Source: Escherichia coli O127:H6 str. E2348/69
Lineage (GTDB): Bacteria; Pseudomonadota; Gammaproteobacteria; Enterobacterales; Enterobacteriaceae
Direction: 5' to 3' (one strand)
DNA: 64,000 bases
Assembly (NCBI RefSeq): GCF_000026545.1
Contig: NC_011601.1
Part shown: positions 12,511 to 48,224 of the stretch, piece after piece
Position numbering within the stretch: the first letter of the stretch is position 1
Layout of the letters: each line of letters begins with the position of its first letter
Made by a program: the position numbers and the translations under genes
Notes under the pieces: generated by a model
The model's database searches: none
What the model was told of the DNA's origin: nothing
Seen by the model: the letters and a program-made list of their open reading frames with translations, nothing else

Positions 12511-12515
12511 AAAAA

Positions 12516-15339: not shown

Positions 15340-15356
15340 AATAAACCAGTTAAATG

Positions 15357-16373: not shown

Positions 16374-16412
16374 AATGCTACCCTTATATCATTACTTTAT
16401 TGTTTCTCAGTT

Positions 16413-18511: not shown

Positions 18512-18554
18512 TGAAACTCTCATTAATTGAGTAAAACTCACTGTTTTAACGGTT

Positions 18555-19490: not shown

Positions 19491-19526
19491 AATGAAGTTA
19501 GTTCCAGTACATACTGATTAATATTT

Positions 19527-31466: not shown

Positions 31467-32183
31467 TCAGTTTGCCAGCGCCGCCTTCTGCGTCGCTACA
31501 ATGGATTCGATTCCCCCTCGGGCCAGCGCCAACAAGGTGAGTAGCTCTTCATGGGTAAACGGCTCGCCTTCTGCCGTTCCCTGAACTTCAATGATGCGCC
31601 CGTCTTCGGTCATCACCACGTTCATGTCCGTTTCAGCGGCAGAGTCTTCAACGTATTCCAGATCGCAAACCGCTTCGCCGTTCACAATACCAACAGAAAC
31701 CGCGGCTACCATCCCTTTCATCGGGTTGGTTTTCAGCTTGCCATTTTCAACCAGTTTATTCAGGGCATCGGCCAGTGCAACACAAGCACCGGTAATCGAA
31801 GCGGTACGCGTGCCACCATCAGCCTGAAGCACGTCGCAGTCCAGCGTAATGGTGAACTCACCCAGCGCTTTCAAATCTACTGCCGCGCGAAGAGCACGGG
31901 CGATCAGACGCTGGATTTCCATTGTGCGTCCCCCCTGCTTACCTTTCGCCGCTTCACGGGCATTACGGGTATGAGTAGAACGCGGCAGCATACCGTATTC
32001 TGCGGTGATCCAGCCCTGGCCCTGACCTTTCAGGAAGCGCGGCACGCCTTCTTCAATAGAGGCGGTACACAACACTTTGGTATCGCCAAATTCGACCAGC
32101 ACCGAGCCTTCTGCATGTTTTGTATAGTTACGAGTCAGGGTAACGGGACGCACCTGATTATTGCTACGGCCTGCTGGACGCAT
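31467..32183 (-). CDS. rph: Ribonuclease PH (full length)
   Basis: ORF 31467..32207 trimmed to [15 protein letters not shown] (238 aa); C-terminus intact. Confidence 0.95.
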
Positions 32184-32309
32184 ATTGAAATCTCCGGCTT
32201 GAAACAAATGTGGCTGCGCATTATACGGACTTCCGGCGGTTATTCCTATCCTGACAAGGCATCGATGGCTATAATCCTTCCACCTCTCCTTTTATAAACA
32301 GGAACGTCT

Positions 32310-33173
32310 ATGATCCGCAGTATGACCGCCTACGCCCGGCGTGAAATCAAGGGTGAATGGGGGAGCGCAACCTGGGAAATGCGCTCGGTAAACCAGCGTT
32401 ATCTGGAAACTTACTTTCGTCTGCCGGAGCAGTTCCGTAGCCTTGAACCTGTCGTTCGTGAGCGTATTCGTTCTCGCCTGACGCGCGGTAAAGTGGAATG
32501 TACCCTGCGCTATGAGCCCGATGTCAGCGCGCAAGGTGAGCTGATCCTCAACGAAAAACTGGCTAAACAGCTGGTAACTGCCGCGAACTGGGTAAAAATG
32601 CAGAGTGACGAAGGGGAAATCAACCCGGTTGATATTCTCCGCTGGCCAGGCGTGATGGCGGCCCAGGAACAGGATCTCGACGCGATTGCCGCTGAAATTC
32701 TCGCGGCGCTGGATGGTACGCTGGACGACTTTATCATCGCGCGCGAAACCGAAGGTCAGGCGCTGAAAGCATTGATCGAGCAGCGTCTGGAAGGCGTGAC
32801 CGCCGAAGTGGTCAAAGTCCGCGCCCACATGCCGGAAATCCTGCAATGGCAGCGTGAGCGTCTGGTGGCTAAGCTGGAAGACGCCCAGGTGCAACTGGAA
32901 AACAACCGTCTGGAGCAGGAGTTGGTTCTGCTGGCACAACGAATTGACGTTGCCGAAGAGTTGGACCGCCTCGAAGCGCATGTTAAAGAGACCTACAACA
33001 TTCTGAAGAAAAAAGAAGCCGTTGGTCGTCGTCTGGACTTTATGATGCAGGAGTTCAACCGCGAGTCGAACACCCTGGCCTCGAAGTCTATCAATGCCGA
33101 AGTGACTAACTCCGCCATTGAGCTGAAAGTGTTGATCGAGCAGATGCGCGAGCAGATTCAGAATATTGAATGA
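32310..33173 (+). CDS. yicC: YicC family stress-induced protein
   Basis: 287-aa ORF; synteny with rph. Confidence 0.9.
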   Translation: MIRSMTAYARREIKGEWGSATWEMRSVNQRYLETYFRLPEQFRSLEPVVRERIRSRLTRGKVECTLRYEPDVSAQGELILNEKLAKQLVTAANWVKMQSDEGEINPVDILRWPGVMAAQEQDLDAIAAEILAALDGTLDDFIIARETEGQALKALIEQRLEGVTAEVVKVRAHMPEILQWQRERLVAKLEDAQVQLENNRLEQELVLLAQRIDVAEELDRLEAHVKETYNILKKKEAVGRRLDFMMQEFNRESNTLASKSINAEVTNSAIELKVLIEQMREQIQNIE

Positions 33174-33212
33174 TTTTGCATGCTGTCGCATGAAATTGCA
33201 AAAATCCATCAT

Positions 33213-33237
33213 AGCCCGCATTTTGCGGGCTTTTTTA
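33213..33237 (+). terminator. Intrinsic terminator of yicC
   Basis: Hairpin AGCCCGC-ATTTT-GCGGGCT followed by a T-run, 40 nt past the yicC stop. Confidence 0.65.
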
Positions 33238-33281
33238 TTTTCATACTGTCGCATATGATTGCATAGCATCGCGCAAAACAT

Positions 33282-33300
33282 TTGTACCCAAGACTGTACC
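33282..33300. repeat. attL core (left copy of the 19-bp direct repeat)
   Basis: TTGTACCCAAGACTGTACC, identical to 44406..44424; 61 bp upstream of the integrase start. Confidence 0.75.
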
Positions 33301-33360
33301 TTTAATAATTTATCCAATTCATTTTGGGTACAAAATGATAGTCAATATTCAGGTGAAACT

Positions 33361-34620
33361 ATGGCAAAGCTGACAGATATCCAAATCAAGTCATGGATTA
33401 AGGCAGGAGAACGCTTCGAGGGGCGCTCTGACGGCAACGGGCTATACCTTCGCTATCGAGTGGGGGATAAAGTGCCTGTATGGCGTTTTCGATATCAGTT
33501 CGCTGGGAAATCACGGGTAATGCTTATTGGATCTTATAGCGAAATATCCCTTTCCAAAGCACGGGAAATAGCCAAGGAATTATCCGCACGTGTAGCCCTG
33601 GGCTTCGATGTCGCCGGGGAAAAGAAAGCGCGAAAAGCGGCTGCTATAGAAAAGATGGAGCGGGAGAAAAACGCGCTTCGCGTGTCAGAGCTAGCAACCG
33701 AGTATTTCGAACGGCAGATTTTGGGACGCTGGAAACATCCCGATCTTCTGCGCCGGAGAATCGATAAGGATATCAACCCACATATTGGCAACATGAAGAT
33801 AGAGGACGTAAAACCCCGTCATATTGATGCGATGCTACAGAGCGTTGTTGATCGTGGCGCTCCAACCGTAGCTAATGACGTTCTGCGCTGGACTAAACGC
33901 ATATTCGATTATGCTATCAAGCGTCATGCACTGGAATTAAACCCAGCTGGAGCATTTGATCTGTCAGACGCTGGCGGGCAGGAAAGTAGCCGTATGCGCT
34001 GGCTGACCCGTGAAGAACTTATACGTTTTTTCCAAGCTATGCGCACTGCAAAAGGATTCAGCCGCGAGAACGAGCTGACCATGAAGCTAATCCTCTGCCT
34101 GTGTTGTCGCAAAATGGAGCTGTGCGGTGCTCAGTGGGATGAATTCGACCTTGATGAAGCAGTGTGGCATCTACCAGCAGAACGCGTTAAAAACGGCGAC
34201 GCTATTGATATACCACTACCTCCACCTGCGGTTGGTTGGTTGAGAGAGCTTCGCACTATCGCGGGCAGTGGGAGTAAATGGGTTCTCCCCGCGCGGAAGA
34301 TGCAACACCGCATGATTCCCCACATTCAGGAAAGCACACTCCCAGTGGCGCTGGCAAAAGTACGCCGCGAAATGCCAGAAGTACCAAACTTCACAATTCA
34401 CGATTTCAGGCGTACCGCCCGCACCCATTTAGCGGCGTTGGGTGTCGATCCCGTAGTCGCAGAACGTTGCCTGAATCACCGCATTAAAGGCGTTGAGGGT
34501 ATCTACAACCGCCACCAGTACTTTGAAGAACGACGGGCAGCCCTGGAACTGTGGGCGGGGCTTCTGGTTTCGCTTGAACGAGGGGAAAACTACAATGTTA
34601 TTCCTTTATCTAAAATATAA
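33361..34620 (+). CDS. int: Tyrosine-type site-specific integrase (P4-like)
   Basis: ORF 33259..34620 trimmed to MAKLTDIQIKSW (419 aa); catalytic region HDFRRTARTHL and C-terminal Tyr region (GIYNRHQY). Confidence 0.9.
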   Translation: MAKLTDIQIKSWIKAGERFEGRSDGNGLYLRYRVGDKVPVWRFRYQFAGKSRVMLIGSYSEISLSKAREIAKELSARVALGFDVAGEKKARKAAAIEKMEREKNALRVSELATEYFERQILGRWKHPDLLRRRIDKDINPHIGNMKIEDVKPRHIDAMLQSVVDRGAPTVANDVLRWTKRIFDYAIKRHALELNPAGAFDLSDAGGQESSRMRWLTREELIRFFQAMRTAKGFSRENELTMKLILCLCCRKMELCGAQWDEFDLDEAVWHLPAERVKNGDAIDIPLPPPAVGWLRELRTIAGSGSKWVLPARKMQHRMIPHIQESTLPVALAKVRREMPEVPNFTIHDFRRTARTHLAALGVDPVVAERCLNHRIKGVEGIYNRHQYFEERRAALELWAGLLVSLERGENYNVIPLSKI

Positions 34621-34636
34621 AAGTTTTGTTTGAAGG

Positions 34637-34739
34637 TATTCACCCTATTCACCTTTTTAATTAACTTCATGATTTTAAATAATAAAAAAGGGTGAATACT
34701 TACAGTAAAACTAATCACCTTAGTATTCACCTGTTCACC
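34637..34739. repeat. Cluster of five TATTCACC/TGTTCACC 8-mers (putative recombinase arm-type or regulator sites)
   Basis: TATTCACC at 34637, 34646 and 34724; TGTTCACC at 34732; inverted copy GGTGAATA at 34691; directly downstream of int. Confidence 0.5.
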
Positions 34740-34817
34740 TTCTAAAGCTGCTGTGGCTGCTCCCCTTGCCCGAAAACACGCCAGCCACCAGCGTTAAAAA
34801 AAACTACAAAAATCATC

Positions 34818-34839
34818 ATCGTACAGATCTGTACGATGA
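34818..34839. promoter_or_regulatory. Perfect 22-bp palindrome, putative operator
   Basis: CATCGTACAGATCTGTACGATG in the non-coding region between int and the cargo operon. Confidence 0.4.
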
Positions 34840-35123
34840 CGCCAGCACTCACCCTACAAAACAACCTAACTTATTGATTTCAAAAGTAGAGAAAATCTGC
34901 TTTATGCCACTAGCTCGCACCCGTCCCCAAAAAGAAAAAGCCCGCGCTGGAGACGCACGGGCTTTTGGGTACCGATAACCATGTTTGGAATCAACTCATT
35001 GAGTTCTGACCTCAATTTGCATGTTATCACAAGAAAAACACATTGTAATAATTGCAACAACGAATATCATCATTGCATATAATGAAACATAAATATCCGA
35101 TAGAACATACTGAGGTCTGACCG

Positions 35124-35675
35124 ATGCAAGATATTACAAACATCGCAGTGACTGGCGAAGATGGCGTGGTGACGTATGCCGACGGCAGTAAAGAGGAGTT
35201 CCAGTGCAGCGGAACCGTTGCGACCATCATTGCAAGTCTTGCAACGACACTCGAGAAAGAACGCAAAATGCGCATCGCCACCGGCGACCGCCTGCGCCGC
35301 ATGTACACCCGCGACAGTGATATGATTTCCCGCGGTTTGAATGGCACGTCTGCTACTTCCACGGCACCGACAGCAATGAATGCTGAGTTCATGCGTCTGG
35401 TACGTGCCGTAGCGCCGAAATACGATTCAGCACTGCCCGACGCCGACCCGCGCATCGTTGCGCTCGATGTGCTGCGCTACGCCCCTGCTGAGGCGTTCAG
35501 CGCCGTACACCCTACCCCAATGTCAGAAATCCAGCTGGATCAGGCTATCGATATACTCGAGCAGGTTGGCGACTACATGAAAGCAAACAATATCGCTCCG
35601 AAAATAATTTCTACAGGAGACGCAATCCGCAGCATCAATGCTGACAACGCCACCTTCTGGGGCAAAAAACACTAA
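35124..35675 (+). CDS. Hypothetical protein (island cargo, operon gene 1)
   Basis: 183-aa ORF with no recognised domain; first of four co-directional, tightly spaced ORFs. Confidence 0.6.
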   Translation: MQDITNIAVTGEDGVVTYADGSKEEFQCSGTVATIIASLATTLEKERKMRIATGDRLRRMYTRDSDMISRGLNGTSATSTAPTAMNAEFMRLVRAVAPKYDSALPDADPRIVALDVLRYAPAEAFSAVHPTPMSEIQLDQAIDILEQVGDYMKANNIAPKIISTGDAIRSINADNATFWGKKH

Positions 35676-35688
35676 AGAGATATGAAGC

Positions 35689-35877
35689 ATGTCTATCTAT
35701 GACCCGAAATTAGCCGCAGGCAACCCACAGCGCGCCCACCGCCCAATGCTGACCCGTCAGGATCTTGAAACGGCAAAGGCACGCAATAACTTCGATCGCC
35801 AGAGTCGCAACCTGCAGCAACTCAACGAATCAAATGCACGGTTCTGGAGTGAACAGAATGAGAAAGCCAAACGTTAA
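35689..35877 (+). CDS. Hypothetical small protein (operon gene 2)
   Basis: 62-aa ORF 14 bp after gene 1. Confidence 0.45.
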   Translation: MSIYDPKLAAGNPQRAHRPMLTRQDLETAKARNNFDRQSRNLQQLNESNARFWSEQNEKAKR

Positions 35878-36034
35878 GCCGGTCCTGCTGTCCGCCGAGC
35901 AGATGCAGGCCATACGCAACATTCAGGAACGTGAACGCCAGCGCTCCAATCTCGGCGTCGCTCCCACCGTTCACCAGATTGCCCGCGGCCTCATGGCTAA
36001 GGCTCTGGCCTCACTGGCAAGCGAGGGCGCGTAA
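35858..36034 (+). CDS. Hypothetical small protein (operon gene 3; start uncertain)
   Basis: ORF track gives 35765..36034; trimmed to ATG 35858, which has GGAG 9 nt upstream; stop overlaps the next start (TAATG). Confidence 0.35.
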   Translation: MRKPNVKPVLLSAEQMQAIRNIQERERQRSNLGVAPTVHQIARGLMAKALASLASEGA

Positions 36035-36765
36035 TGGGCGCCATTCACCAGATATATGAGCAGGAAATGTTCTATAACTGGATAGGCGATGGTAAACGAT
36101 GTGTAGCATTCCACGAAGCGGGCCATGCAGTAGCCGCATGGCTTATTCGCTTAGATATGCAGGTTATCGCCATTATGGATGAATCCGGCTACGTTGCTGG
36201 CGAACATGTACATGAAGCCCAGTGTTTGGGCGTTGTTAAACACGGCATAATCCACAGCCACGATCTCAGGCGTTTGCGGGAGAGTAAATCTGGTGTAGTT
36301 GGGCACGATGGCAAAGTTATCCCTTTCATACGCTACTACGCGGAAGGTATAAAGCGCGATGCAACAAAGGCCGCTTTTGTAGCCCTCGCTGGACCAGTAA
36401 GCGAAGCCATTTACGAAAATAACGAAATTTTCAATATAAAGTATTCACTCCCTCACCGCTATGACATGGCTAACGTAAATGACATGCTCGATTTAATATG
36501 TGCCACGGATAAGCGAATTAACAGGAAGTTAATGCTTTCTAAACTTGTTGAAAAGACCAAATTCCTCATGACTCAATACTGGCCGGAAGTAGGAAAAATA
36601 GCGCATTTGCTTGAGCGGGATAACATTGTTAATGGCCGCGATGTTAGCTCGCTAATCGGCCTCAACGTCATTGACCGGGCAACGCCATTTTTGGTATCTG
36701 ACTTGAGCAGTACATTTGCTCATCTCCCGTACTCGTCCCTGCCTCCGAATGAATTAGCAACTTGA
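36034..36765 (+). CDS. FtsH-like (M41-type) zinc metallopeptidase-domain protein lacking ATPase and membrane modules
   Basis: 243 aa; HEAGH zinc-binding motif (AFHEAGHAVAAW) and downstream LAGPVSEAIY segment resembling the FtsH protease domain; no Walker motifs. Confidence 0.65.
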   Translation: MGAIHQIYEQEMFYNWIGDGKRCVAFHEAGHAVAAWLIRLDMQVIAIMDESGYVAGEHVHEAQCLGVVKHGIIHSHDLRRLRESKSGVVGHDGKVIPFIRYYAEGIKRDATKAAFVALAGPVSEAIYENNEIFNIKYSLPHRYDMANVNDMLDLICATDKRINRKLMLSKLVEKTKFLMTQYWPEVGKIAHLLERDNIVNGRDVSSLIGLNVIDRATPFLVSDLSSTFAHLPYSSLPPNELAT

Positions 36766-36776
36766 AGACAGTAAAG

Positions 36777-36803
36777 TAGCCATGCATTTAACACGCATGG
36801 CTA
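36777..36803. terminator. Hairpin between convergent cargo operons (putative bidirectional terminator)
   Basis: 9-bp perfect stem TAGCCATGC / GCATGGCTA with a 9-nt loop, between the stops at 36765 (+) and 36813 (-). Confidence 0.45.
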
Positions 36804-36812
36804 TGTGAACAT

Positions 36813-38036
36813 TTAAGAATTAGAGCGCTTAGGCGATCGCGTAAATTGCACTAAAGCCCCTTTATGATCGTTAGCCTGCACATCACGATGCTCAACCAAC
36901 ATAGATTTTAATTTTGCCAGATGCACAACAGCAGCCTTCTTGCCAGTCAGGTACCCCTCGGGCAAACCAGCAATCATTTCCACATCAATAGCAGATAAAC
37001 CTGCGAATGCAGCAAGCCGTTCAACTGAAATGATTCCAGACGATGCCAGCAATTCAATAGTACGTTTCAACAAACGTGGTTTTTCAGGCTCACGATAATC
37101 ATCTCCCGGCTCTGATTTCGCTCCCCAACGTGCTGAACGACGCTTATAAAGATTTTGTTTCTCTTCTTCCGTAATAATATGCAGCACATGTAAACGCATG
37201 ATACTTGCCGCAACGGAAATACCATAGCGTTGTTTAATTAAAAGCAAGCTATCTAATGTTACCGGGGTCCTAATTTCTTCGGCAAATGTCTCAGCAGGAA
37301 GCAGCAGTGCTCCCGCAAATTTATGAGCCTGACTTTCCTTCAGCTTATAACGTTCGGCTTCGAGTTCGTTGCCAACATAGCGGTGAAGGATCAGATGACC
37401 AATTTCGTGAGCAAGGTCAAATCTGCTACGAAAAGCATTACCTTTATCTGAAGAGAGGAGAACAAAAGGAACACCTAAAGTCTCACTCCAGGCAGAAAGC
37501 CCTTCAATCTGCGCAACGCCTGTTTCTTCTCTAATAACGATAATACCATTACTCTCTGCGGCTAAAGCAAGATCCGGTATTTCCTTTGTACCAAGATTCC
37601 AAAGAGCACGGCACTCATTAGCAGCGTCTTCAATATCTGCATCACTAATTTCATCAATGTTTGTAAAGCTACGACGCGGTAGTTTTAGCTCCGGCAGATC
37701 TACAAACTCAGTCAGCTTAGTAACTAACTCATTAGCCCAATGGATTCGAGTTTCTAACATTGCTCGTGCAGCTACATGAGCTGATGCATTGCTTCTGAAC
37801 AGAGGCTTTGACATCCCCTTCAACAGAGGGCGCGTAAACCATTCAGGTGTAACATTTACGACAGTGGCCAGACGTTCTAAAGCCTCAGACTCTGGAGCCT
37901 GTTGACCGGAACGCCATTTGCTAATGGTTGCTGGTGATACACCCACCATAGTAGCTAATTGAGTTTGTGATAGCCGCCGGGCGGCTAGTACCTGTGCTAA
38001 CCTGCCCGGTTGAAATTCGGCGACGCCTCGGCTCAT
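36813..38036 (-). CDS. Fused HTH-XRE / ImmA-IrrE-type (M78-like) zinc metallopeptidase protein
   Basis: 407 aa; N-terminal XRE helix-turn-helix (LSQTQLATMVGVSPATISKWRSG); central HExxH motif (LAHEIGHLILH); start overlaps the upstream gene stop by 4 bp. Confidence 0.8.
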   Translation of the reverse strand: MSRGVAEFQPGRLAQVLAARRLSQTQLATMVGVSPATISKWRSGQQAPESEALERLATVVNVTPEWFTRPLLKGMSKPLFRSNASAHVAARAMLETRIHWANELVTKLTEFVDLPELKLPRRSFTNIDEISDADIEDAANECRALWNLGTKEIPDLALAAESNGIIVIREETGVAQIEGLSAWSETLGVPFVLLSSDKGNAFRSRFDLAHEIGHLILHRYVGNELEAERYKLKESQAHKFAGALLLPAETFAEEIRTPVTLDSLLLIKQRYGISVAASIMRLHVLHIITEEEKQNLYKRRSARWGAKSEPGDDYREPEKPRLLKRTIELLASSGIISVERLAAFAGLSAIDVEMIAGLPEGYLTGKKAAVVHLAKLKSMLVEHRDVQANDHKGALVQFTRSPKRSNS

Positions 38037-38680
38037 ACATTATCTTCCTCGGTTCCATCTTTTCTGATAATGCCCCTTTTGAGCCCAGGGAATGCATTAT
38101 CTTCTTGGGACGGAACTACATCATATCGGGTTAAAAAAAGTTCAAGTGGCTCATGAAAAACCCAGCGCTTCCCATCAGAACTTGGTACAACAAGCTCTAT
38201 AGACATCGGAGCTTCAGGCTGAATCTGCAACGAACCGGAAAAACGGCATACTACGAACAGTGTAGCTTTTGGCACATCAGAACCATCGGAGAATAAATCC
38301 GGTTGCACCATTTTTTCCACAAACACGTTCTCAGAAATGAGTTCTTGCTTACGTTTGCTACGGAATAATCTCTTCCACTGGTTATCATTGTAGCTTTCAC
38401 GAACAATCGTGAATATACCACTATGGCCTTCTACAATACGGTTACCACGCAGCTTTCCAGGATTACAACCGTTGGCCTCAAACACCTCATAAATAGTTTC
38501 ATTCAGGTTTAAATGACGATCATAACCAAGCGCGGTCGATCTGTGATCTAGCTTCTTCTTTTGAGCATAATCGTAAGAACGCTTTGATGCCGCGTAAATC
38601 GCGTCAGAAAGGGCCATGAAGAGTTGTTTTGAAACATTCTGAACGATGAGATCTGCCACTTTGGATTTTTTCACGACCAT
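38033..38680 (-). CDS. Hypothetical protein, co-operonic with the HTH-peptidase gene
   Basis: 215-aa ORF; AGGAA just upstream of the ATG; no recognised domain. Confidence 0.65.
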   Translation of the reverse strand: MVVKKSKVADLIVQNVSKQLFMALSDAIYAASKRSYDYAQKKKLDHRSTALGYDRHLNLNETIYEVFEANGCNPGKLRGNRIVEGHSGIFTIVRESYNDNQWKRLFRSKRKQELISENVFVEKMVQPDLFSDGSDVPKATLFVVCRFSGSLQIQPEAPMSIELVVPSSDGKRWVFHEPLELFLTRYDVVPSQEDNAFPGLKRGIIRKDGTEEDNV

Positions 38681-39209
38681 TTCCTATCACTGTCACTGAT
38701 AGCCGTGATTTTATATCAGTATTTTTTCGTGTGTCCATAACGCAATCAATTATTTTTTCCTTTGTCAGCAAGAATTATATAAAAAGCACTATCATGACAG
38801 GATTTGGGCCACTAACCTTTCACAGACTCTTGAAGTCCTAGAAAAAAGCAATGGCACAAGGTGTCCTTGCCGGGAGAAAAATCATCTGGCTACCAGCAAC
38901 CTTATAGATTCCAGATCAACGTAATATCAAAGTAAAACGTCCATTTCCGGTACCATATTTGGTCATTACGACGGGGGAAACTTATACCCACTGCTGCCCC
39001 ATCGTCAGCGCCGACAGGGACCTATGCCGCAAGGTATAAGGCAAAATTGGCATTTTCGCTATTCCCCCTGCCCGTATTTTTTGGCTTACTGGAATTTCTC
39101 TATCTAACACAATGAACTTGAGGCTATTCCGACAGGGAGAAAAGCGATCTACGCCTGACCGCCTGCCTCAGCAATCATCCAGGCAAGTACGTGTGTAAGG
39201 CTAACGCGA

Positions 39210-39890
39210 ATGAGTGATTTTTATTCCCCTCTACCAAGCTATGATCTTGTCCGGGCAGCGGAGATGCTGACTGATAAGGGGGCAAATTGTACCGGTAACG
39301 ATTTATTGGAACTATGGAACCAAGGCGTTATCGAGTTGTGTTTTTCTCTGCCGGACTACATTGCTTGTGAAGATGTTAATTTTCCCGGGCATGGTCACAG
39401 CATTTTGTTATCCGTGGATCCGATTAGCTTCAACCTTTTCTGGCTAAATGTTGATTACCCACCGAACTTAAATGCTAACTTTTCTGTGAAAGAATATGGC
39501 TCAGATAGTGAATTCCATGAGCAGTCCCTATGGATACCAACAGAACCGCACTACAACACTCACCATGATAACGGGGAAGGGCTTTGCGAAGCGTTAAGGA
39601 ATACTTATGGCCGGGAAAATTTACGAATACCAGGTGTCGAATTGCAAAAGGTTTGGCGCTTTTTGATCGGTCAGCCTTATGAAAAAAAGCCAACGCCTGA
39701 GCGTATCACCGCTAAGCAATGCCGCTTTATCGTCGCATTACTCAGATCGTATAACCTGACTGACGATGATTTTAAGGGGAGCATTAGGGACCTGAGAATT
39801 AAGATATCTAACCGGATCCCTTCAATCGGTGATCCTGAAATCGATGATAATACCCTTACTGACTGGCTGAAGAAGGGAGGGGTTCGGTAG
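39210..39890 (+). CDS. Hypothetical protein (island cargo, orphan)
   Basis: 226-aa ORF with no recognised domain; divergent from the 38680 operon. Confidence 0.6.
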   Translation: MSDFYSPLPSYDLVRAAEMLTDKGANCTGNDLLELWNQGVIELCFSLPDYIACEDVNFPGHGHSILLSVDPISFNLFWLNVDYPPNLNANFSVKEYGSDSEFHEQSLWIPTEPHYNTHHDNGEGLCEALRNTYGRENLRIPGVELQKVWRFLIGQPYEKKPTPERITAKQCRFIVALLRSYNLTDDDFKGSIRDLRIKISNRIPSIGDPEIDDNTLTDWLKKGGVR

Positions 39891-39992
39891 CTGAGTTTTC
39901 ATAACTCCGATGAGTTTTCAATAACTCCCCCACCCGTAACCACCTACCCCGTAGCCTTGCGATTACCTTCTCACTCAATAGCAGGTAATCGC

Positions 39993-40205
39993 ATGAAATC
40001 GCAAACTTTCACCTTTCCTACCAATGGCAACGCACGAGCCAAACAAGTGGCGCACTATCTTGGAGTGCATATCAGCACCGTATGGCGCTATGCAAAACGT
40101 CCTGATTTTCCAAAACCCCACCAGTTAACCGACGGCGTGACCGTCTTTGACGCCGCAGCTATTCGCCAATGGAACAAGCAAAAAACCGGGGGTGAGAATG
40201 CTTAA
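39993..40205 (+). CDS. alpA: AlpA-family phage transcriptional regulator / excisionase-like protein
   Basis: ORF 39957..40205 trimmed to MKSQTFTF (70 aa); HTH segment AKQVAHYLGVHISTVWRYAKRPDFPKP typical of AlpA/Vis. Confidence 0.7.
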   Translation: MKSQTFTFPTNGNARAKQVAHYLGVHISTVWRYAKRPDFPKPHQLTDGVTVFDAAAIRQWNKQKTGGENA

Positions 40206-40259
40206 CGCGACCGTGAGCACACCCTGCACGACAGCCGTTCGATCTCCATTGTTGGCGGG

Positions 40260-40454
40260 TCAGGCTTTCGGCTCAATACCCAGCCGCTGGAGTTCTTTGC
40301 GCCCCAAGGTTTTCATCCAATTAGCTAAACTCATACCTGCATCTCGTGCGGCGGCCTCGAATTGCTCTTTCAATTCTGGGGCGATCCTCACTTGGAAAGC
40401 TGGTGCCTTTCCCCTGCCTTTGGGCTGTTTATCACGCTGTATTACTGTTGACAT
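40260..40454 (-). CDS. Putative ribbon-helix-helix DNA-binding protein
   Basis: ORF 40260..40547 trimmed to MSTVIQRD (64 aa); beta-strand plus two-helix pattern (FQVRIAPELKEQFEAAARDAGMSLANWM). Confidence 0.45.
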   Translation of the reverse strand: MSTVIQRDKQPKGRGKAPAFQVRIAPELKEQFEAAARDAGMSLANWMKTLGRKELQRLGIEPKA

Positions 40455-40588
40455 GTATGTACCTATTAAACTAAGATTCAAATCAATAGGTACGCACCTT
40501 AACATGTTAAGGTCAGAAAAGACAACGCCCCGTAGTGCTCGCAACACATACGGGGCGTCTAACCAACAACGTTACGGAGACTAACGCT

Positions 40589-40789
40589 ATGGCTAAGCCG
40601 CAGTGTACCCAAACTCACCCCAAATATCAGTATCGTTTTATGGCGCTCGATCGCGCTGACCGCCAGGCAAAACCCTGCAAAATCATTGTTGAGGCCACCA
40701 GCGAGCATGAAGCACGTAAGGTGTTGGCACCTCACTACATCCTGTCACTGTCCGCCGTTTTGCCAGTTCAGGAGGTGAGCCATGTTTAA
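40589..40789 (+). CDS. Hypothetical protein (replication-module operon)
   Basis: ORF 40535..40789 trimmed to ATG 40589, which follows GGAGA; 66 aa. Confidence 0.4.
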   Translation: MAKPQCTQTHPKYQYRFMALDRADRQAKPCKIIVEATSEHEARKVLAPHYILSLSAVLPVQEVSHV

Positions 40790-40976
40790 TGTCATTGTCA
40801 CGGTCACCTATCACTTTTCGGGAACGATCCGTCGTTTTGCTATTCCGGAACGTTTCAATAATCGTGAGCTCGCAGAGAAAGCGGCGCAGCAGTTAACCCA
40901 TACCAGCTATCTGGATGATGGAGTGAGCAGAATTGTGACCCACGCGGCGGAAGTAGTGGAGGTGCGCCATGTATGA
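40782..40976 (+). CDS. Hypothetical protein (replication-module operon)
   Basis: 64-aa ORF whose start overlaps the upstream stop. Confidence 0.4.
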   Translation: MFNVIVTVTYHFSGTIRRFAIPERFNNRELAEKAAQQLTHTSYLDDGVSRIVTHAAEVVEVRHV

Positions 40977-41157
40977 CGCCTACCTGAACCCAAAGGACGC
41001 ACTCCGTCCGATCGCCGTTGCACTCGAGGCTGCGCAGTTTATCGCGCTTGACCCGGAGAATACCGATTTAGCCCATGAGCTGATCGCCTGGGCACTTGAA
41101 ACAGCCGCGCGTGCCTCAGCTGCGCAACGTAACACCCCGGAGGTGGACAATGCTTAA
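40969..41157 (+). CDS. Hypothetical protein (replication-module operon)
   Basis: 62-aa ORF whose start overlaps the upstream stop. Confidence 0.4.
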   Translation: MYDAYLNPKDALRPIAVALEAAQFIALDPENTDLAHELIAWALETAARASAAQRNTPEVDNA

Positions 41158-41458
41158 TCTCAATACATGGAATCTTTTCACGCTGCCGCTGAACGGTGGC
41201 GCAGCTGAGACAGCGCCGGACGATCTGCGTCTGCTGGCCGCTGTGGGGGACGAGGCTCGCAACAACTACCTGCGCGGTGTAAGCGCCATCGGCAATCTGA
41301 TCTTCTGGGCATGTGATAACCCCAACTACACCGACCATCAAGCTGACCTGCCAGCGCTGGGCGCATTCCTGAAACATACCGCTGATATGGCGCGCGCTGC
41401 CGAATTCATGGCAGGACATCTGGACTCACTGGCTGACGGCAAAGAGGGAGGCAAATAA
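41150..41458 (+). CDS. Hypothetical protein (replication-module operon)
   Basis: ORF 41096..41458 trimmed to ATG 41150, which follows GGAGGTGG; 102 aa. Confidence 0.45.
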   Translation: MLNLNTWNLFTLPLNGGAAETAPDDLRLLAAVGDEARNNYLRGVSAIGNLIFWACDNPNYTDHQADLPALGAFLKHTADMARAAEFMAGHLDSLADGKEGGK

Positions 41459-41679
41459 TGCCACGCAAACATCGCTCATCAAGCAACCTGATCAAATTAA
41501 TGGAACGCCAGAAAGGTATAGGGCGCGACGATATCCAGATCGCAGATAATCGCCCTACATTCATGCCGTACGAGCCGAACGGAACCTACGCTACAAACCG
41601 CCATACCCGCCGTATGCTACGCAAGCTCCACGGCATCCAGGCAAAAAGAATGTGTGATCTGAAAGGAGGTCAGAAATGA
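41458..41679 (+). CDS. Hypothetical protein (replication-module operon)
   Basis: 73-aa ORF; stop overlaps the primase start. Confidence 0.45.
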   Translation: MPRKHRSSSNLIKLMERQKGIGRDDIQIADNRPTFMPYEPNGTYATNRHTRRMLRKLHGIQAKRMCDLKGGQK

Positions 41680-44090
41680 GTGGATTCGATCACCTGATGG
41701 AGCAGGGGCAGAAACGCACCCCTGCTCGTTTTACTGCAAATAGCTTTTCTGACCTGTGCAACGCTATTCTATCGCATCGTGTGCAAATTTCCATCACACA
41801 GGAAATGACGGATGAAGAACGGCGCAAAGAAAAGCAGAAACTGTACTGGTTCTCGGCAACTACCCAGCAGGACGGGCAGCGACGTAAACCCGAAAACATG
41901 GCACCGTGTGCTTTCGGTATGCTGGACATTGACGGCAGCACTCCCGGTGCAATCACAGCACTTGTACAGGTGTTCCGGCGATACTCAATGCTGGTGTACC
42001 AGACGGCCAGCTATACGACGGATGAACCTCGTCTGCGTATTGTGTGCGAGCTTTCCCGAGCGGTTGAATCTGACTACCGCCGAGCGACAGGCGAATCCAT
42101 AGAAACTTTGTTGATGCAGGAGGCTGGATTCTCATTCGCCAGCCTGGCGGATAAGAAAGCACGCTGGGAGAACGGCAGCGATTATGTTGTCTTTGACCGC
42201 AATGTATACGGCGCTCAAAGCTATTGCTACTGTCCACACACTGGAGCGAAAGCCCAGAATTACGCGGGCGCGGTAATCGACGTAGGGGCGTTACCGGAAC
42301 CCGCCCAGCCACCAGCGAAGGCGGCCAAAAGCAAGGCAAAGAAACAGCGCCAGCGTGACGCCGCGGCGGTAATAGATGCTGATTTTGACGATCTGAGCGC
42401 CGGACCGGATAACTTCCTTATCGCCGACCTGCGCAGCGCACTCTGGTTTCCCTCCATGCTGCAAAAGGCATGGGACAATGGGGCGTGGATTGAGCAGGGC
42501 TACCGCCTTGCATCTCTCAAAGGCACCGATTTTGAGGACGACGCGCGGCAACTGTGGGTCGAGTGGTCATTGACCGCAGCGGATGGCTGGCCTGATGAAG
42601 AACTTGATGAAGTCGCGGCACAACGCTGGAATGGTCTCGCCCCTGACAAAACCAGCTATAAAGCTATTTTTACTGATGCTCAGGCGCAGGGGTGGAATAA
42701 TCCGGGCAAATGGCGAGCAAAGGCCGCGTACATTGAGAAAATGGCCCCCAGCACACGCGGTGAACTGCTGGCGCAATATTACGGCAACGTATGCCTGAAA
42801 GCTGATGGCAACATGGTTTATCACTATACCGGGCAGGTGTGGGAGCACATCGCCGATGCCGAGTTGCGCCGCCAGCTTTCGCAGATTTTCAAAGATAACG
42901 GGGTCCCCTTTACACCGTACGAGGTTAAAAGCGCGATTGAGGCTATGGGAATGCTTCTGCCTTTAATGGGAGAAACTCCTCGTAACCTGATTGGCTTTGC
43001 CAACGGCGTTTATGATCTCGAGGCGCAGCGATTCCGCCCCCACTGCCCAGACGATTGGCTGACCAGCCATAACGGCGTTGAATACACGCAGCCGGTTAAA
43101 GGCGAAACCCTGAAAAACAATGCCCCAAACTTCTGGCGCTGGCTGCATCATTCCGCAGGGGGCGACTTCGACAAAATGGAGAGAATCAAAGCCGCTCTGT
43201 ATATGGTGCTGGCAAACCGCTACGACTGGCAACTGTTCATCGAGGTTACCGGTGCTGGTGGCAGTGGTAAAAGCGTGTTCACGGGTATTGCACGTATGCT
43301 GACGGGCGAACTACACGCCACCAGCGGCACAATGGAGGACATGGACACCGCGCGCGAACGCGCATCTTTTGTCGGCAAAAGCCTGATCACCCTACCCGAC
43401 CAAGCAACATATACGGGTTCCGGGCCGGGTATCAAGGCTATAACGGGCGGCGACGTGGTAAGGATCGACCCAAAGCACGAAAAGCCATTCCATACGGTTA
43501 TTCGCGCCGTTGTCATCGCAACAAACAACGAACCTATGCGTTTCACCGAACGACAAGGCGGGATATCGCGGCGCCGGGTTATTTTCCCGTTTAACCATGA
43601 AGTGCCGGAGGCGGAACGTGATCCCCATCTGCTCGATAAAATTAAAGCCGAACTGCCGGTAATCGTCCGTGGTCTGCTGATTGACTTCGAACAGCCAGGC
43701 AAAGCCAAATCGCTACTTATCGCGCAGCGTGATTCAGCGGAAGCGCTGCAGGTGAAGAACGATAACGACCCGATGTATGGCTTTTGCTCTTACCTGCTAG
43801 GTTTGCCGAATCCCGAGGGCATGTACATGGGCGATGGGCGCATGGCGCGAGAGCCACGCATCTACCTCTATCATGCTTATCTGGCCTATCTGGAAGCCTA
43901 CGGTTATCAGAGAACCCCCACCCTACCGAAGTTCAGCGGAGATTTACGGGACACGCTCAAAGCCTTTGGTATTACTCTGGACAGTAAAAAGAGTAAAAAG
44001 GGCAAAAGATATAACGTCAATTTGTCTGACAGGGCACAAGAATGGCTGGGAGAAGACGAACTCTCAGCTGTGCCCGACACATTGCAGTAA
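41676..44090 (+). CDS. P4 alpha-like primase-helicase
   Basis: 804 aa; Walker A GAGGSGKS in the C-terminal half (SF3/D5-type helicase); last gene of a translationally coupled operon. Confidence 0.85.
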   Translation: MSGFDHLMEQGQKRTPARFTANSFSDLCNAILSHRVQISITQEMTDEERRKEKQKLYWFSATTQQDGQRRKPENMAPCAFGMLDIDGSTPGAITALVQVFRRYSMLVYQTASYTTDEPRLRIVCELSRAVESDYRRATGESIETLLMQEAGFSFASLADKKARWENGSDYVVFDRNVYGAQSYCYCPHTGAKAQNYAGAVIDVGALPEPAQPPAKAAKSKAKKQRQRDAAAVIDADFDDLSAGPDNFLIADLRSALWFPSMLQKAWDNGAWIEQGYRLASLKGTDFEDDARQLWVEWSLTAADGWPDEELDEVAAQRWNGLAPDKTSYKAIFTDAQAQGWNNPGKWRAKAAYIEKMAPSTRGELLAQYYGNVCLKADGNMVYHYTGQVWEHIADAELRRQLSQIFKDNGVPFTPYEVKSAIEAMGMLLPLMGETPRNLIGFANGVYDLEAQRFRPHCPDDWLTSHNGVEYTQPVKGETLKNNAPNFWRWLHHSAGGDFDKMERIKAALYMVLANRYDWQLFIEVTGAGGSGKSVFTGIARMLTGELHATSGTMEDMDTARERASFVGKSLITLPDQATYTGSGPGIKAITGGDVVRIDPKHEKPFHTVIRAVVIATNNEPMRFTERQGGISRRRVIFPFNHEVPEAERDPHLLDKIKAELPVIVRGLLIDFEQPGKAKSLLIAQRDSAEALQVKNDNDPMYGFCSYLLGLPNPEGMYMGDGRMAREPRIYLYHAYLAYLEAYGYQRTPTLPKFSGDLRDTLKAFGITLDSKKSKKGKRYNVNLSDRAQEWLGEDELSAVPDTLQ

Positions 44091-44108
44091 CTTGTAAAAA
44101 ATCACCAA

Positions 44109-44133
44109 GAACCCCGTAAATCGGGGTTTTTGT
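44109..44133 (+). terminator. Intrinsic terminator after the primase gene
   Basis: Hairpin ACCCCG-TAAAT-CGGGGT followed by TTTTT, 20 nt past the stop. Confidence 0.6.
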
Positions 44134-44150
44134 CTATTTATTAGTCTGAA

Positions 44151-44255
44151 AGGGTGAACAGGTGCGCATACCTTAACAAAGCTGTTCACTCTAATAATTT
44201 TCTTTAATATCAGTACACTACCCGCAATAAGTGAACAGATGGACGGGGTGAACAC
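44151..44255. repeat. Cluster of GTGAACA motifs near the right island end
   Basis: GGTGAACA at 44153 and 44248, GTGAACAG at 44231, inverted copy TGTTCAC at 44183; related to the left-end TGTTCACC/TATTCACC cluster. Confidence 0.45.
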
Positions 44256-44405
44256 TTCACACCTATAGCGCGAAATATTTTAATATTTGCAGTTGAATTG
44301 CAATCCTTGAAAACAGAAACGCGTAGCAAAACGTAGAGTGCTGAAAAAATTTTGTTGGGGAGCAGTTCAAACTGCATGAGCAATTTTCAAGCACTCCTCT
44401 TTGTC

Positions 44406-44424
44406 TTGTACCCAAGACTGTACC
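44406..44424. repeat. attR core (right copy of the 19-bp direct repeat)
   Basis: TTGTACCCAAGACTGTACC, identical to 33282..33300. Confidence 0.75.
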
Positions 44425-44655
44425 CAATAGAAAAAATAGAAAATAAAAACTCAGCAATAGCAGCGATTGGTTACACTACTCAACATTCAGATTCAACTCG
44501 TAACGCCAATTCTTACTTTTCAGCCTTCACAAATGCCGCCCACTCAAACAGAGCGGCATTTTTCTTCCCCGCAACTTCAATTCTGTTTTGCGTGCCTGCT
44601 CCAGATTTTGCGATGTTTTTTTGCCCAGCGCAGTGAGAACGTGAGATACTCACAA

Positions 44656-44671
44656 CTGTATATAAACACAG
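44656..44671 (+). promoter_or_regulatory. LexA (SOS) box in the dinD promoter
   Basis: CTGTATATAAACACAG matches CTGT-N8-ACAG, ~45 bp upstream of dinD. Confidence 0.75.
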
Positions 44672-44716
44672 TTGTAGACTTACTTTCCTTGCAATCGATA
44701 TCACATGGAGTGGGCA

Positions 44717-45541
44717 ATGAACGAACATCATCAACCTTTTGAAGAGATAAAGCTGATTAATGCAAACGGAGCAGAACAATGGTCAGCAAGACAACTTGGG
44801 AAACTACTGGGTTATTCAGAGTATCGTCACTTTATACCTGTATTAACGCGCGCCAAAGAAGCTTGTCTGAATAGTGGTCACACAATTGATGACCATTTCG
44901 AGGAGATCCTCGATATGATCAAAATTGGCTCAAATGCCAAAAGAGCATTAAAAGACATCGTACTCTCCCGCTATGCCTGTTACCTGGTAGTACAAAACGG
45001 CGACCCTGCGAAACCGGTTATTGCGGCAGGGCAAACTTATTTTGCTATCCAGACCCGACGGCAGGAGCTGGCTGACGATGAAGCTTTCAGGCAACTTCGT
45101 GAAGACGAAAAGCGTCTTTTTCTGAGAAATGAGTTGAAAGAACATAACAAACAATTAGTTGAGGCAGCGCAGCAAGCTGGGGTAGCGACAGCTATCGATT
45201 TCGCCATATTTCAGAATCATGGTTACCGGGGGCTGTATGGTGGATTAGATCAGAAAGCCATCCATCAGCGGAAGGGGCTGAAAAAGAGTCAGAAGATCCT
45301 GGATCATATGGGTTCAACAGAACTGGCGGCTAATCTCTTTCGAGCTACCCAAACAGAAGAAAAACTCAAGCGGGATGGCGTGAATTCAAAACAGCAAGCT
45401 AACACCACACACTTTGACGTGGGTCGCAAGGTGAGGCAAACCATTCAGGAACTTGGCGGAACCATGCCTGAGGAGTTGCCGACCCCGCAGGTCAACATCA
45501 AGCAGTTGGAAAACAGTGTAAAAATTACAGAGAAGAAATAG
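44717..45541 (+). CDS. dinD: DNA damage-inducible protein D
   Basis: ORF 44705..45541 trimmed to MNEHHQPFEE (274 aa); LexA box upstream. Confidence 0.85.
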   Translation: MNEHHQPFEEIKLINANGAEQWSARQLGKLLGYSEYRHFIPVLTRAKEACLNSGHTIDDHFEEILDMIKIGSNAKRALKDIVLSRYACYLVVQNGDPAKPVIAAGQTYFAIQTRRQELADDEAFRQLREDEKRLFLRNELKEHNKQLVEAAQQAGVATAIDFAIFQNHGYRGLYGGLDQKAIHQRKGLKKSQKILDHMGSTELAANLFRATQTEEKLKRDGVNSKQQANTTHFDVGRKVRQTIQELGGTMPEELPTPQVNIKQLENSVKITEKK

Positions 45542-45832
45542 CAGAAACTAAAAACTCTTTTTGTTGATTGAGATACCCGATGCGTAAGCCAAAGTCCAGG
45601 TGCGGTGAACACAATGGCTAAACATTGCACCTTTCTTTTCCACCCCTCAATTTTAACCTATTTTTTCTTATGCATTCTCTCAGACAAGAAGTCAGAAGAA
45701 TGCATCTACGCTACAGAAAATAGCGATTTCACATAACTACAAGTTATCAATTTCCTCTCACCTTAAAAAATCTCAATCGTGACAATACGCACAAATCGCT
45801 ACCCTGCCAGACAGATTTTTAGGGAGAGAACC

Positions 45833-48224
<2,392 letters not shown>

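Follow-up and report, generated by a model that had tools for sequence, protein, structure and literature searches.

A predicted RosmerTA toxin–antitoxin pair in a swappable island slot of Escherichia coli E2348/69

RosmerTA was named and validated as an anti-phage system by Millman et al. (2022), who described it as system SG158 of E. coli OLC-716 and in whose hands a deletion of rmrA was unobtainable. The RosmerTA of Gordonia phage Kita provides narrow anti-phage defence, and RmrA is described as a hub antitoxin paired with diverse toxins (Ernits et al. 2023). According to Tn-seq data sets of three Pectobacteriaceae strains, rmrA is essential and rmrT is not, and a link to ClpX was reported; in E. 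coli E101, a related toxin/antidote module with no known domain made clpP essential. Some RosmerTA homologues show little or no defence in S. thermophilus. Fused Xre–COG2856 proteins located beside toxins had already been described, and predicted to be the antitoxin/regulator half of toxin–antitoxin (TA) loci (Makarova et al. 2009). Related domains are found in ImmR/ImmA of ICEBs1, DdrO/IrrE of Deinococcus, and CapH/CapP of CBASS, each of which combines an XRE helix-turn-helix (HTH) repressor with an M78/COG2856 Zn-peptidase that inactivates the repressor by cleavage.

The window analysed here, i.e., the whole stretch of 64,000 nt from contig NC_011601.1 of E. coli O127:H6 str. E2348/69, contains two adjacent genes that RefSeq labels "hypothetical protein" and "helix-turn-helix domain-containing protein" in this EPEC reference strain. 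The main value of the analysis lies in annotation, as these two vaguely labelled genes are recognisable as a RosmerTA defence/TA module. The pair is a RosmerTA-type two-gene TA module that probably works as an abortive-infection anti-phage system and would incidentally stabilise its island.

Gene identity and operon layout

The two genes and their putative control elements have the following window coordinates:

38033..38680, minus strand: rmrT, 215 aa, predicted toxin (ORF list and PADLOC RmrT model)
36813..38036, minus strand: rmrA, 407 aa, predicted antitoxin and regulator (ORF list and PADLOC RmrA model)
38708..38737, minus strand: sigma-70-like promoter (TGGACA, 18-nt spacer, TAAAAT; 10/12 matches in a consensus scan)
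38684..38702, no strand assigned: 19-bp near-perfect palindrome CTATCAGTGaCAGTGATAG, candidate operator for the HTH of RmrA (clade conservation)
36777..36803, minus strand: hairpin with an 11-bp stem, possible terminator, just past the rmrA stop and between convergent genes

The ORF list agrees with the first-pass annotation, which had described a 215-aa ORF without a recognisable domain, overlapping a 407-aa ORF by 4 bp; Pfam and NCBIfam are both blank for the former. At the junction GTATGAGC, the ATG of rmrA shares 4 bp (ATGA) with the TGA of rmrT. This overlap couples the two genes translationally into a single unit, which has a promoter of its own. Both are considered genuine genes because homologues, at 50–93% identity, are found in six other genera (Serratia, Salmonella, Citrobacter, Pectobacterium, Photorhabdus, and Aeromonas).

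The element at 38708..38737, which probably serves as the operon promoter, is located 28 nt upstream of the rmrT ATG. Conservation over 8 loci, taken from different hosts, extends about 55 nt upstream of this ATG and includes the promoter; the sequence farther upstream diverges. The palindrome lies between the −10 box and the rmrT ATG, overlapping the ribosome-binding site, and is kept in the close clade (loci L007, L011, L012, and L017–L020); more distant loci have CGAAA-type boxes flanking the −10 box on both sides in its place. As for the hairpin, its function as a terminator is uncertain because its T-run (CTTTACTGTC) is weak.

According to PADLOC, the 407-aa protein matches the RmrA model PDLC03951 with E 3.5e-125 (residues 1–399 against model positions 1–397 of 400), as well as 13 further RmrA models. 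The 215-aa protein, hereafter RmrT-215, matches the RmrT model PDLC03937 with E 8.1e-16 (residues 5–213 against positions 4–220 of 221) and PDLC03942 with E 2.4e-7, and P0125, a distant member of its family, matches PDLC03937 with 2.7e-46. Because both proteins match the RmrA and RmrT models full-length, the pair is assigned to RosmerTA (Millman et al. 2022); judging by these models, it is an ordinary member of that family and not an unnamed system, so the novelty proposed in the first-pass annotation does not stand.

Three regions are distinguished in RmrA:

37836..37997, minus strand: XRE-type HTH, residues 14–67 (Pfam HTH_3, E 4.8e-12)
37191..37559, minus strand: M78/ImmA/IrrE-type Zn-peptidase domain, residues 160–282 (Pfam Peptidase_M78, E 1.6e-17)
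36816..37190, minus strand: C-terminal region past the peptidase domain, residues 283–407 (~125 residues)

The fusion of an XRE HTH with an ImmA-type peptidase, to which the first-pass annotation added a C-terminal extension, is recovered by Pfam. The peptidase motif LAHEIGHLILH supplies H210, E211, and H214 (HEIGH at 37395–37409), and the peptidase domain matches CapP in the PDB (7t5t, E 3.6e-8). RSRFD, H210, E211, H214, and E234 are invariant across 7 RmrA proteins, including the verified RmrA of OLC-716, and from the invariant RSRFD, HExxH, and E234 the Zn-peptidase is predicted to be catalytically competent. The C-terminal region belongs to the family and is no add-on, because the RmrA profile covers it; it is conserved among RmrAs partnered with relatives of RmrT-215. 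RmrA also has the same fused architecture as the spr1629 family repressor/antitoxin (NCBIfam NF052239, residues 13–352, E 1.4e-46), but is not its equivalog because the 159.3 bits are far under the curated cut-off of 335.

For RmrT-215, in turn, Pfam is blank even with the threshold relaxed to E<=10, and NCBIfam gives no match either, HigB/RelE included. Pfam gives no match for any member of the 57-sequence family alignment either, and a PDB sequence/profile search with the family returns only noise (E>=0.34). The family is small and has a confident predicted structure: clustering at 50% identity leaves 97 clusters in a set of 1.84 billion representatives; a scan of GTDB species-representative genomes gives one locus only, and tblastn against INPHARED phages and PLSDB plasmids gives no match. 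The AF2 model (pLDDT 93.3) is alpha/beta and weakly resembles restriction-endonuclease folds, and all its close structural neighbours in a Foldseek search against AFDB50 are uncharacterised proteins. A canonical PD-(D/E)xK nuclease, with its alpha-beta-beta-beta-alpha-beta core and D...(D/E)xK catalytic residues, finds no support in the conserved residues of the family. RmrT-215 is predicted to be soluble and without a transmembrane segment because its highest 19-residue hydropathy is 0.86, and for lack of a hydrophobic segment a membrane toxin by analogy with phage Kita is rejected. The target of RmrT-215 might be nucleic acid and not the membrane, a best guess made with low confidence. One further element stands out in the family alignment:

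38078..38107, minus strand: C-terminal linear motif Q192-x-D-x-A-x-P-x-L-K201 of RmrT (conservation in 57 family members)

Among these 57 members, D194 and L200 are each conserved in 93% and K/R201 in 100%. The motif is coil, and the pLDDT of the model falls over the tail. Speculatively, the tail could be an RmrA-contact site, a cleavage site, or a degron. A more specific reading, to which only a small probability is given, is that RmrT-215 represents a toxin class without a characterised relative, soluble and with a restriction-endonuclease-like core and a non-canonical active site, and that the tail QxDxAxPxLK is a substrate or pseudosubstrate of the RmrA peptidase. If this were true, RosmerTA would be a protease-gated effector, and the yicC–dinD island would represent in-place swapping of unrelated effectors on one conserved, phage-sensing HTH-peptidase chassis.

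The island slot and its two cargos

The pair is housed in an 11.1-kb island between yicC and dinD, with the following landmarks:

33282..33300, plus strand: attL, left-hand member of a perfect 19-nt direct repeat, TTGTACCCAAGACTGTACC
44406..44424, plus strand: attR, right copy of the same repeat
36694..39948, no strand assigned: swappable cargo slot, or hotspot (blastn against the island of E. coli FWSEC0003)
39117..39184, plus strand: int-alpA RNA motif (Rfam RF02996, 39.4 bits vs a gathering score of 35.8), right boundary of the RosmerTA cargo

The repeats bracket the genes from the integrase to the primase, and the integrase gene (33361–34620) begins 60 nt downstream of attL. The earlier description of the pair as co-transcribed cargo of an integrated island was right. 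The island genes include those for a P4-type integrase, AlpA-like, Arc-like, and Icd-like proteins, and a primase. A tRNA-gene integration site is ruled out, as no tRNA is found within 32000–46000. The larger backbone ORFs have no match in PHROG, with no Psu seen, and the six neighbouring island proteins checked have no CBASS or other match in PADLOC except for a weak HTH.

According to blastn, the backbone is 99.0% identical to the FWSEC0003 island at 33001–36693 and 98.5% at 39949–44719, whereas no similarity is detected between these flanks except at 39118–39221. The slot contains rmrA, rmrT, the int-alpA RNA motif, and a variable 226-aa ORF. The RNA motif aligns at 78% identity with the beginning of the fragment cloned from OLC-716, and this clone in turn matches 10 E. 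coli genomes at 100% identity.

In E. coli, the island slot has two alternative cargos, the E2348/69 pair and the verified RosmerTA. Both consist of two co-stranded genes with the toxin first, occupy the same slot between yicC and dinD in the same orientation within island backbones 98.5–99% identical, and are bounded by the int-alpA RNA motif. Their antitoxins are homologous, sharing the HTH, the M78 peptidase, and the invariant RSRFD/HExxH/E motifs. However, they are only 27% identical (over 330 aa, E 3e-26), and the alignment ends at about residue 335, after which the two diverge. The toxins differ in length (215 aa in E2348/69 and 239 aa in OLC-716) and in the PADLOC RmrT models they match (PDLC03937/42 and PDLC03935/32, respectively). 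No sequence or profile similarity is found between them, and remote homology is rejected on a BLASTP E of 0.095 and an hhalign probability of 1.2%. The alleles also differ in promoter and operator sequences and in the gene junction, which is a 4-bp overlap in E2348/69 and a 9-nt gap in OLC-716. E2348/69 does not appear in the accessible part of the supplementary tables of Millman et al., nor in Rousset 2021. The slot offers two naturally occurring RosmerTA alleles, their toxins unrelated and their backbone near-identical, and is well suited to studying how different effectors are controlled by one antitoxin chassis.

As for the SOS connection suggested in the first-pass annotation, no support is found for it. 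A scan for CTGT-N8-ACAG gives no site in the promoter region of the module and a sole site in the window, the LexA-box-like sequence CTGTATATAAACACAG (44656–44671) upstream of dinD. This box belongs to dinD and lies just outside the island, beyond attR, about 6 kb away from the operon and on the other strand, and SOS/LexA control of rmrT–rmrA is rejected.

Across the compared loci, RmrA directly follows RmrT in 10/10 cases with enough flank and in five shorter contigs as well (L003, L004, L010, L013, and L014); several metagenomic contigs are too short for their context to be read. The adjacency holds down to ~25% toxin identity. The pair is found in related satellite-type islands (L008 and L017), in a prophage tail module (L009 and L020), in a prophage with RecET on one side and the integrase on the other (L019), in an ICE-like island with a relaxase (L012–14), and at a plain chromosomal site (L011). 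The promoter region moves together with the genes, so that rmrT–rmrA and promoter form a mobile block among satellites, prophages, the ICE-like island, and chromosomal sites. Confinement to prophage regulatory regions, which the first-pass annotation had named as evidence against a defence module, is not what is seen: the pair occupies accessory positions of several different mobile elements.

Proposed mechanism and rival explanations

By analogy with published work on other RosmerTA members, RmrT would be toxic and RmrA neutralising. The anatomy of the locus suggests that the HTH of RmrA represses the operon at the promoter-proximal candidate operator and that RmrA keeps RmrT inactive, probably via its toxin-specific C-terminal part. 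Once RmrA senses a cue derived from the phage, its intact HExxH Zn-peptidase would be switched on and might cleave either RmrA itself or the conserved RmrT tail, a step that would parallel the action of ImmA on ImmR, IrrE on DdrO, and CapP on CapH. Freed RmrT would then arrest the cell, and ClpXP may help to limit the level of free RmrT, a role reported in other RosmerTA systems. Anti-phage protection by the E2348/69 pair would be expected from the sister allele in the slot and from phage Kita. The general idea of the first-pass annotation, namely, a toxin curbed by an HTH-peptidase protein in defence or addiction, agrees with this reading.

A purely addiction-based role, in which post-segregational killing stabilises the island or other mobile elements without any anti-phage function, would explain just as well why the locus has a TA layout and why rmrA was reported to be essential. 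Carriage of the pair on mobile elements and the little defence obtained from some RosmerTA homologues also agree with it. However, anti-phage protection is conferred both by the sister allele of the slot and by the RosmerTA of phage Kita, and addiction and defence are compatible with each other; addiction as the only role seems rather unlikely. The polarity of the two proteins is not guaranteed, because the Xre-peptidase of PD-lambda-2 is itself toxic: when overexpressed alone it was harmful, an effect rescued by the upstream gene. The HTH-peptidase protein would then be the toxin and the 215-aa protein its neutraliser. Ernits et al. note that, near the ImmA/Rosmer node, it is sometimes uncertain which protein is the toxin and which the antitoxin. 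Against such a reversal, the rmrA deletion was unobtainable in the verified RosmerTA, rmrA and not rmrT is essential in the three Tn-seq data sets, and RmrT is not HigB-like, which makes it quite improbable.

RmrA might also be the master switch of the island, a fused ImmR/ImmA-like protein that reacts to a helper phage or to DNA damage by controlling excision or replication; RmrT would be an accessory. An HTH joined to an M78 peptidase follows the logic of ImmR/ImmA, DdrO/IrrE, and CapH/CapP, each of the two slot alleles encountered among complete E. coli genomes has an RmrA-type gene, and the pair lies close to an integrase in L008 and L019. The pair, however, sits in a swappable slot outside the conserved alpA/Arc-like/Icd-like/primase regulatory block, and occurs at 82–95% identity in unrelated elements (prophage tail module, ICE-like island, and plain chromosomal site), with the promoter and candidate operator moving along. 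In addition, RmrA alleles 27% identical on backbones 99% identical are hard to reconcile with shared backbone operators, and control of the island by RmrA is considered very unlikely. A CapH/CapP-type regulator pair acting on a neighbouring defence operon after DNA damage is more improbable still, to the point of being nearly discounted. It could appeal to weak PADLOC similarity to capP (E 1.7e-18) and capH (E 1.3e-6) and to dinD with its LexA-like box nearby, but the match to RmrA models is better by ~100 orders of magnitude, PADLOC gives nothing beyond the weak HTH for the six neighbouring proteins checked, and the box is outside the island.

Comparison with related systems

In its behaviour, the E2348/69 slot resembles the P4-satellite defence hotspot (Rousset 2022). 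The hotspot in P4 satellites is, however, flanked by psu and int, whereas the slot in E2348/69 has another gene and the int-alpA RNA motif as its borders.

Among the systems with similar proteins, PD-lambda-2 (Vassallo et al. 2022) has three genes, of which the first is HigB-like and the third P4-antitoxin-like, and its peptidase fusion is toxic; the E2348/69 pair, in contrast, has two genes, and RmrT has no HigB similarity. The partner toxins of Makarova et al. (2009) are mostly RelE or PIN, and RmrT-215 has no such match. The RosmerTA of phage Kita, like the pair in E2348/69, combines an ImmA-type RmrA with a toxin without a known domain. The Kita RmrT, however, has predicted transmembrane regions and depolarises the membrane, while RmrT-215 is free of hydrophobic segments, its predicted form being soluble and alpha/beta.

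Finally, the M78/COG2856 peptidase domain of RmrA, with its HExxH, is homologous to the ImmA/IrrE/CapP type, as the capP match in PADLOC indicates. ImmR/ImmA, DdrO/IrrE, and CapH/CapP are each made up of two separate proteins, whereas RmrA carries both domains in one 407-aa ORF. In those three systems, DNA damage or some other signal lifts the repression of a regulon or operon; RmrA is instead partnered with a predicted toxin, with no regulated downstream operon among the six neighbouring proteins checked.

Composition and family of the gene pair

Both genes of the pair lie on the minus strand, and RmrA carries two recognisable domains:

38033-38680, minus strand: rmrT, ORF of 215 aa encoding RmrT-215 (ORF list)
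36813-38036, minus strand: rmrA, ORF of 407 aa encoding RmrA (ORF list)
RmrA residues 14-67: HTH_3 (Pfam, E 4.8e-12)
RmrA residues 160-282: Peptidase_M78 / IrrE-like (Pfam, E 1.6e-17)

The junction reads GTATGAGC, so that the rmrA ATG overlaps the rmrT TGA by 4 bp; the genes are co-transcribed and translationally coupled. The peptidase motif of RmrA is intact (HEIGH, residues 210-214), and 125 residues are situated C-terminal to the peptidase domain. The ORF list and Pfam bear out the first-pass annotation, which described ORFs of 215 and 407 aa with a 4-bp overlap, an HTH and an HExxH motif. RmrT-215 gives no hit in Pfam, even at E<=10, or in NCBIfam; RefSeq labels rmrT 'hypothetical protein' and rmrA 'helix-turn-helix domain-containing protein'.

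According to PADLOC-DB, the pair is RosmerTA, a toxin–antitoxin anti-phage family named by Millman et al. 2022 (toxin RmrT, antitoxin RmrA), and is detected by current defence-finder models. RmrA matches 14 RmrA models, the best being PDLC03951 (E 3.5e-125, residues 1-399 vs model positions 1-397 of 400), and RmrT-215 matches RmrT model PDLC03937 (E 8.1e-16, residues 5-213 vs positions 4-220 of 221) and, as a second, PDLC03942. Far weaker scores are obtained with the models for CapP and CapH. As for the NCBIfam equivalog 'spr1629 family repressor/antitoxin', RmrA reaches 159 bits, below the cut-off of 335, which makes it a relative of that family and not a member. ImmA-type RmrA is a hub antitoxin, partner of many different RmrT toxins (Ernits et al. 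2023), and in over half of cases COG2856 is fused to Xre, with toxins as frequent neighbours (Makarova et al. 2009). Thus, the HTH-peptidase fusion and the C-terminal extension of RmrA are standard features of the named family. The first reading, a novel defence or addiction module with an HTH-peptidase controller, was right as to kind, but its novelty does not survive the PADLOC matches.

Structure prediction, proposed at first pass, gives a confident AlphaFold2 model of RmrT-215 (pLDDT 93.3, pTM 0.85, 57-sequence alignment), in which three N-terminal helices precede a five-stranded alpha/beta core. Polar positions conserved in the family are R55, H56, N60, E61, R94, S108, R/K111, N118 (invariant), D128, E177, Y186, D194, and K201. 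These residues give no recognisable PD-(D/E)xK pattern and so lend no support to a canonical nuclease of that type. No hydrophobic segment was found in the sequence, and RmrT-215 is therefore unlike the RmrT of Gordonia phage Kita, a further validated RosmerTA member, which depolarises the membrane (Ernits et al. 2023). A linear motif, QxDxAxPxLK (residues 192-201), is conserved in the flexible C-terminal tail and might, speculatively, serve for contact, for cleavage or as a degron. Our best guess, made with low confidence, is that RmrT-215 is a nucleic-acid-targeting enzyme.

Conservation and mobility of the pair

Relatives of RmrT-215 form 40 clusters at >=50% identity in Enterobacterales and Aeromonas (word-indexed search) and 97 clusters among 1.84 billion representatives (full HMM search), the stronger HMM matches being mostly stand-alone proteins of about 210-220 aa. 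Only one match occurs among 100,044 species-representative genomes, and none was found in INPHARED phages or PLSDB plasmids. The 2.6-kb region with the pair is rare in E. coli (7 of 5,426 complete genomes).

A search for co-occurrence, also suggested at first pass, finds the pair kept together: an RmrA gene directly follows rmrT-215 in all 10 loci with enough flank (tblastn), and likewise follows the toxin in L003 and L004 (toxins ~25-30% identical to RmrT-215) and in L010, L013, and L014. The contexts of the pair are diverse.

Genomic contexts of the pair in compared loci
L008: Serratia fonticola, related satellite-type island adjoining yicC
L017: another related satellite-type island
L009: Aeromonas prophage, between tail genes and the tape-measure gene
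L020: after a tail protein gene
L019: between RecE/RecT-like genes and an integrase
L012-14: Salmonella, ICE-like island with relaxase, near fljB
L011: S. plymuthica, otherwise ordinary chromosomal site

Two of these loci have further genes of note. L008 carries P22_gp7, Inj_translocase, and Phage_P22_gp16 as cargo between rmrT and alpA (4033-9029), and such P22-type ejection-protein genes are unusual for a small satellite-type island. In L011 the gene for a 427-aa RelA_SpoT-domain protein (12841-14124), possibly a further toxin or defence gene, lies ~1 kb from rmrTA.

A predicted promoter (TGGACA, 18-nt spacer, TAAAAT) lies within the ~55 nt 5' of the rmrT ATG, and a 19-bp palindrome, a candidate operator, covers the rmrT ribosome-binding site. 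This ~55-nt stretch is kept along with the genes while sequence further upstream is not; the mobile unit therefore consists of promoter, candidate operator, rmrT, and rmrA.

The island and its alternative cargo

The 11.1-kb island of E. coli E2348/69 (EPEC O127:H6) lies between yicC and dinD and is flanked by a perfect direct repeat of 19 nt (33282-33300 and 44406-44424); no tRNA gene is involved in its integration (32000-46000 scanned). The gene order is tyrosine integrase; four small or unknown genes; rmrA and rmrT; a 226-aa ORF; AlpA-like HTH, Arc-like repressor, and Icd-like genes; small ORFs; and a P4-type primase. Two further features are:

39117-39184, plus strand: int-alpA RNA motif (Rfam RF02996, 39.4 bits), between rmrT and the 226-aa ORF, upstream of alpA
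44656-44671, plus strand: LexA-box-like site CTGTATATAAACACAG (CTGT-N8-ACAG), 46 nt upstream of dinD

The LexA-box-like site is the only CTGT-N8-ACAG in the window and lies 232 nt outside attR, ~6 kb from the rmrTA operon and on the other strand. The SOS promoter that had been linked to the pair is thus dinD's, and no functional link is seen.

Several neighbouring elements deserve mention. A perfect 34-nt inverted repeat (40525-40558, within 40514-40572) just upstream of the Icd-like gene belongs to a ~55-nt segment common to 430 of 5,426 E. coli genomes at 90-94% identity and possibly represents a conserved element of the immunity region in P4-like satellites; 40514-40572 has no Rfam family at gathering score. 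The window holds one more defence-type element, 3 kb away from the island: a retron Ec107-like reverse transcriptase (~29504-30463, minus strand; 4905-5864 of L001; PADLOC PDLC03739, E 6e-131) inserted between slmA and pyrE, a site empty of it in E. coli FWSEC0003. The low-GC stretch at ~11000-20000 (32-39% GC) is the ordinary waa/rfa LPS-core biosynthesis cluster, rfaL to rfaP.

The experimentally verified RosmerTA comes from E. coli OLC-716, as a fragment of 2,192 bp encoding a 239-aa RmrT and a 370-aa RmrA (Millman et al. 2022, supplementary table). The 399 nt listed for it have a 100% match in each of 10 complete E. coli genomes, including FWSEC0003, where the fragment resides in an island at the yicC-dinD site with the gene order of E2348/69 and with rmrA and rmrT at matching position and orientation. 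The two backbones share 99.0% identity at 33001-36693 and 98.5% at 39949-44719 (blastn), and between these arms only a 106-nt block (39118-39221) is similar. This block is the int-alpA RNA motif, the only one kept between both hotspot alleles and the right edge of the RosmerTA cargo, which is why the start of Millman's clone aligns upstream of E2348/69 rmrT. Among 17 genomes with this backbone junction, 7 have the E2348/69 allele and 10 the OLC-716 allele. The shared slot and backbone make the E2348/69 pair an alternative allele of the verified locus.

At the left edge, a 243-aa backbone gene (36034-36765, plus strand), convergent with rmrA, has its last ~23 codons inside the swapped region, and the hotspot breakpoint therefore falls within it. 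It has a HEAGH motif, a 'peptidase M41 family' label in one genome, and no PHROG or PADLOC match. The 226-aa ORF (39210-39890, plus strand), between the int-alpA motif and alpA, is variable too: FWSEC0003 has a 275-aa ORF there, alike only over the first ~48 residues, while copies in L008 and L017 are 58-65% identical. A family match for it was sought and none found.

Proposed mode of action and comparison with known RosmerTA systems

In other RosmerTA members the toxicity of RmrT is neutralised by RmrA (Millman et al. 2022; Ernits et al. 2023). In E. coli E101, clpP became essential through a related toxin/antidote module of the no-domain kind. In the E2348/69 pair, the HTH of RmrA would repress its own operon at the promoter-proximal candidate operator, and the C-terminal part of RmrA, which is toxin-specific, would neutralise RmrT. 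A phage cue may activate the peptidase, as an analogy with ImmA/ImmR, IrrE/DdrO, and CapP/CapH suggests, with cleavage of RmrA or of the RmrT tail presumably followed by growth arrest.

Among other explanations, an addiction module without a defence role is the least improbable, though still unlikely, and addiction is itself compatible with defence. Reversed polarity of toxin and antitoxin, as in PD-lambda-2, is possible at rather long odds: it runs counter to the essentiality of rmrA in three Pectobacteriaceae strains, the only ones in which ClpX is essential as well. Transformation with the rmrA deletion of the verified system did not succeed, 'possibly due to toxicity' (Millman et al. 2022). 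It is similarly unlikely, perhaps slightly more so, that the pair is the island's own ImmR/ImmA-like switch, since it sits in a swappable slot, moves to unrelated elements with its own candidate operator, and has two RmrA alleles only 27% identical on 99% identical backbones. Control of a neighbouring operon of the CapH/CapP type is highly improbable, no such operon having been found among the six neighbouring island proteins compared with PADLOC.

The new content is modest; it includes the RmrT-215 toxin type with its confidently predicted structure. The modular mobility of the pair and its allelic relationship with a verified defence system are observed directly. In comparison with OLC-716, RmrA is homologous (27% identity over 330 aa, E 3e-26), and RSRFD, H210, E211, H214, and E234 are invariant in the alignment that includes the verified RmrA. 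In contrast, no relationship was detected between the toxins (BLASTP E 0.095; hhalign probability 0.06% profile vs sequence and 1.2% profile vs profile), which match different PADLOC RmrT models. The E2348/69 pair and the verified OLC-716 system thus make a neat natural allele pair.
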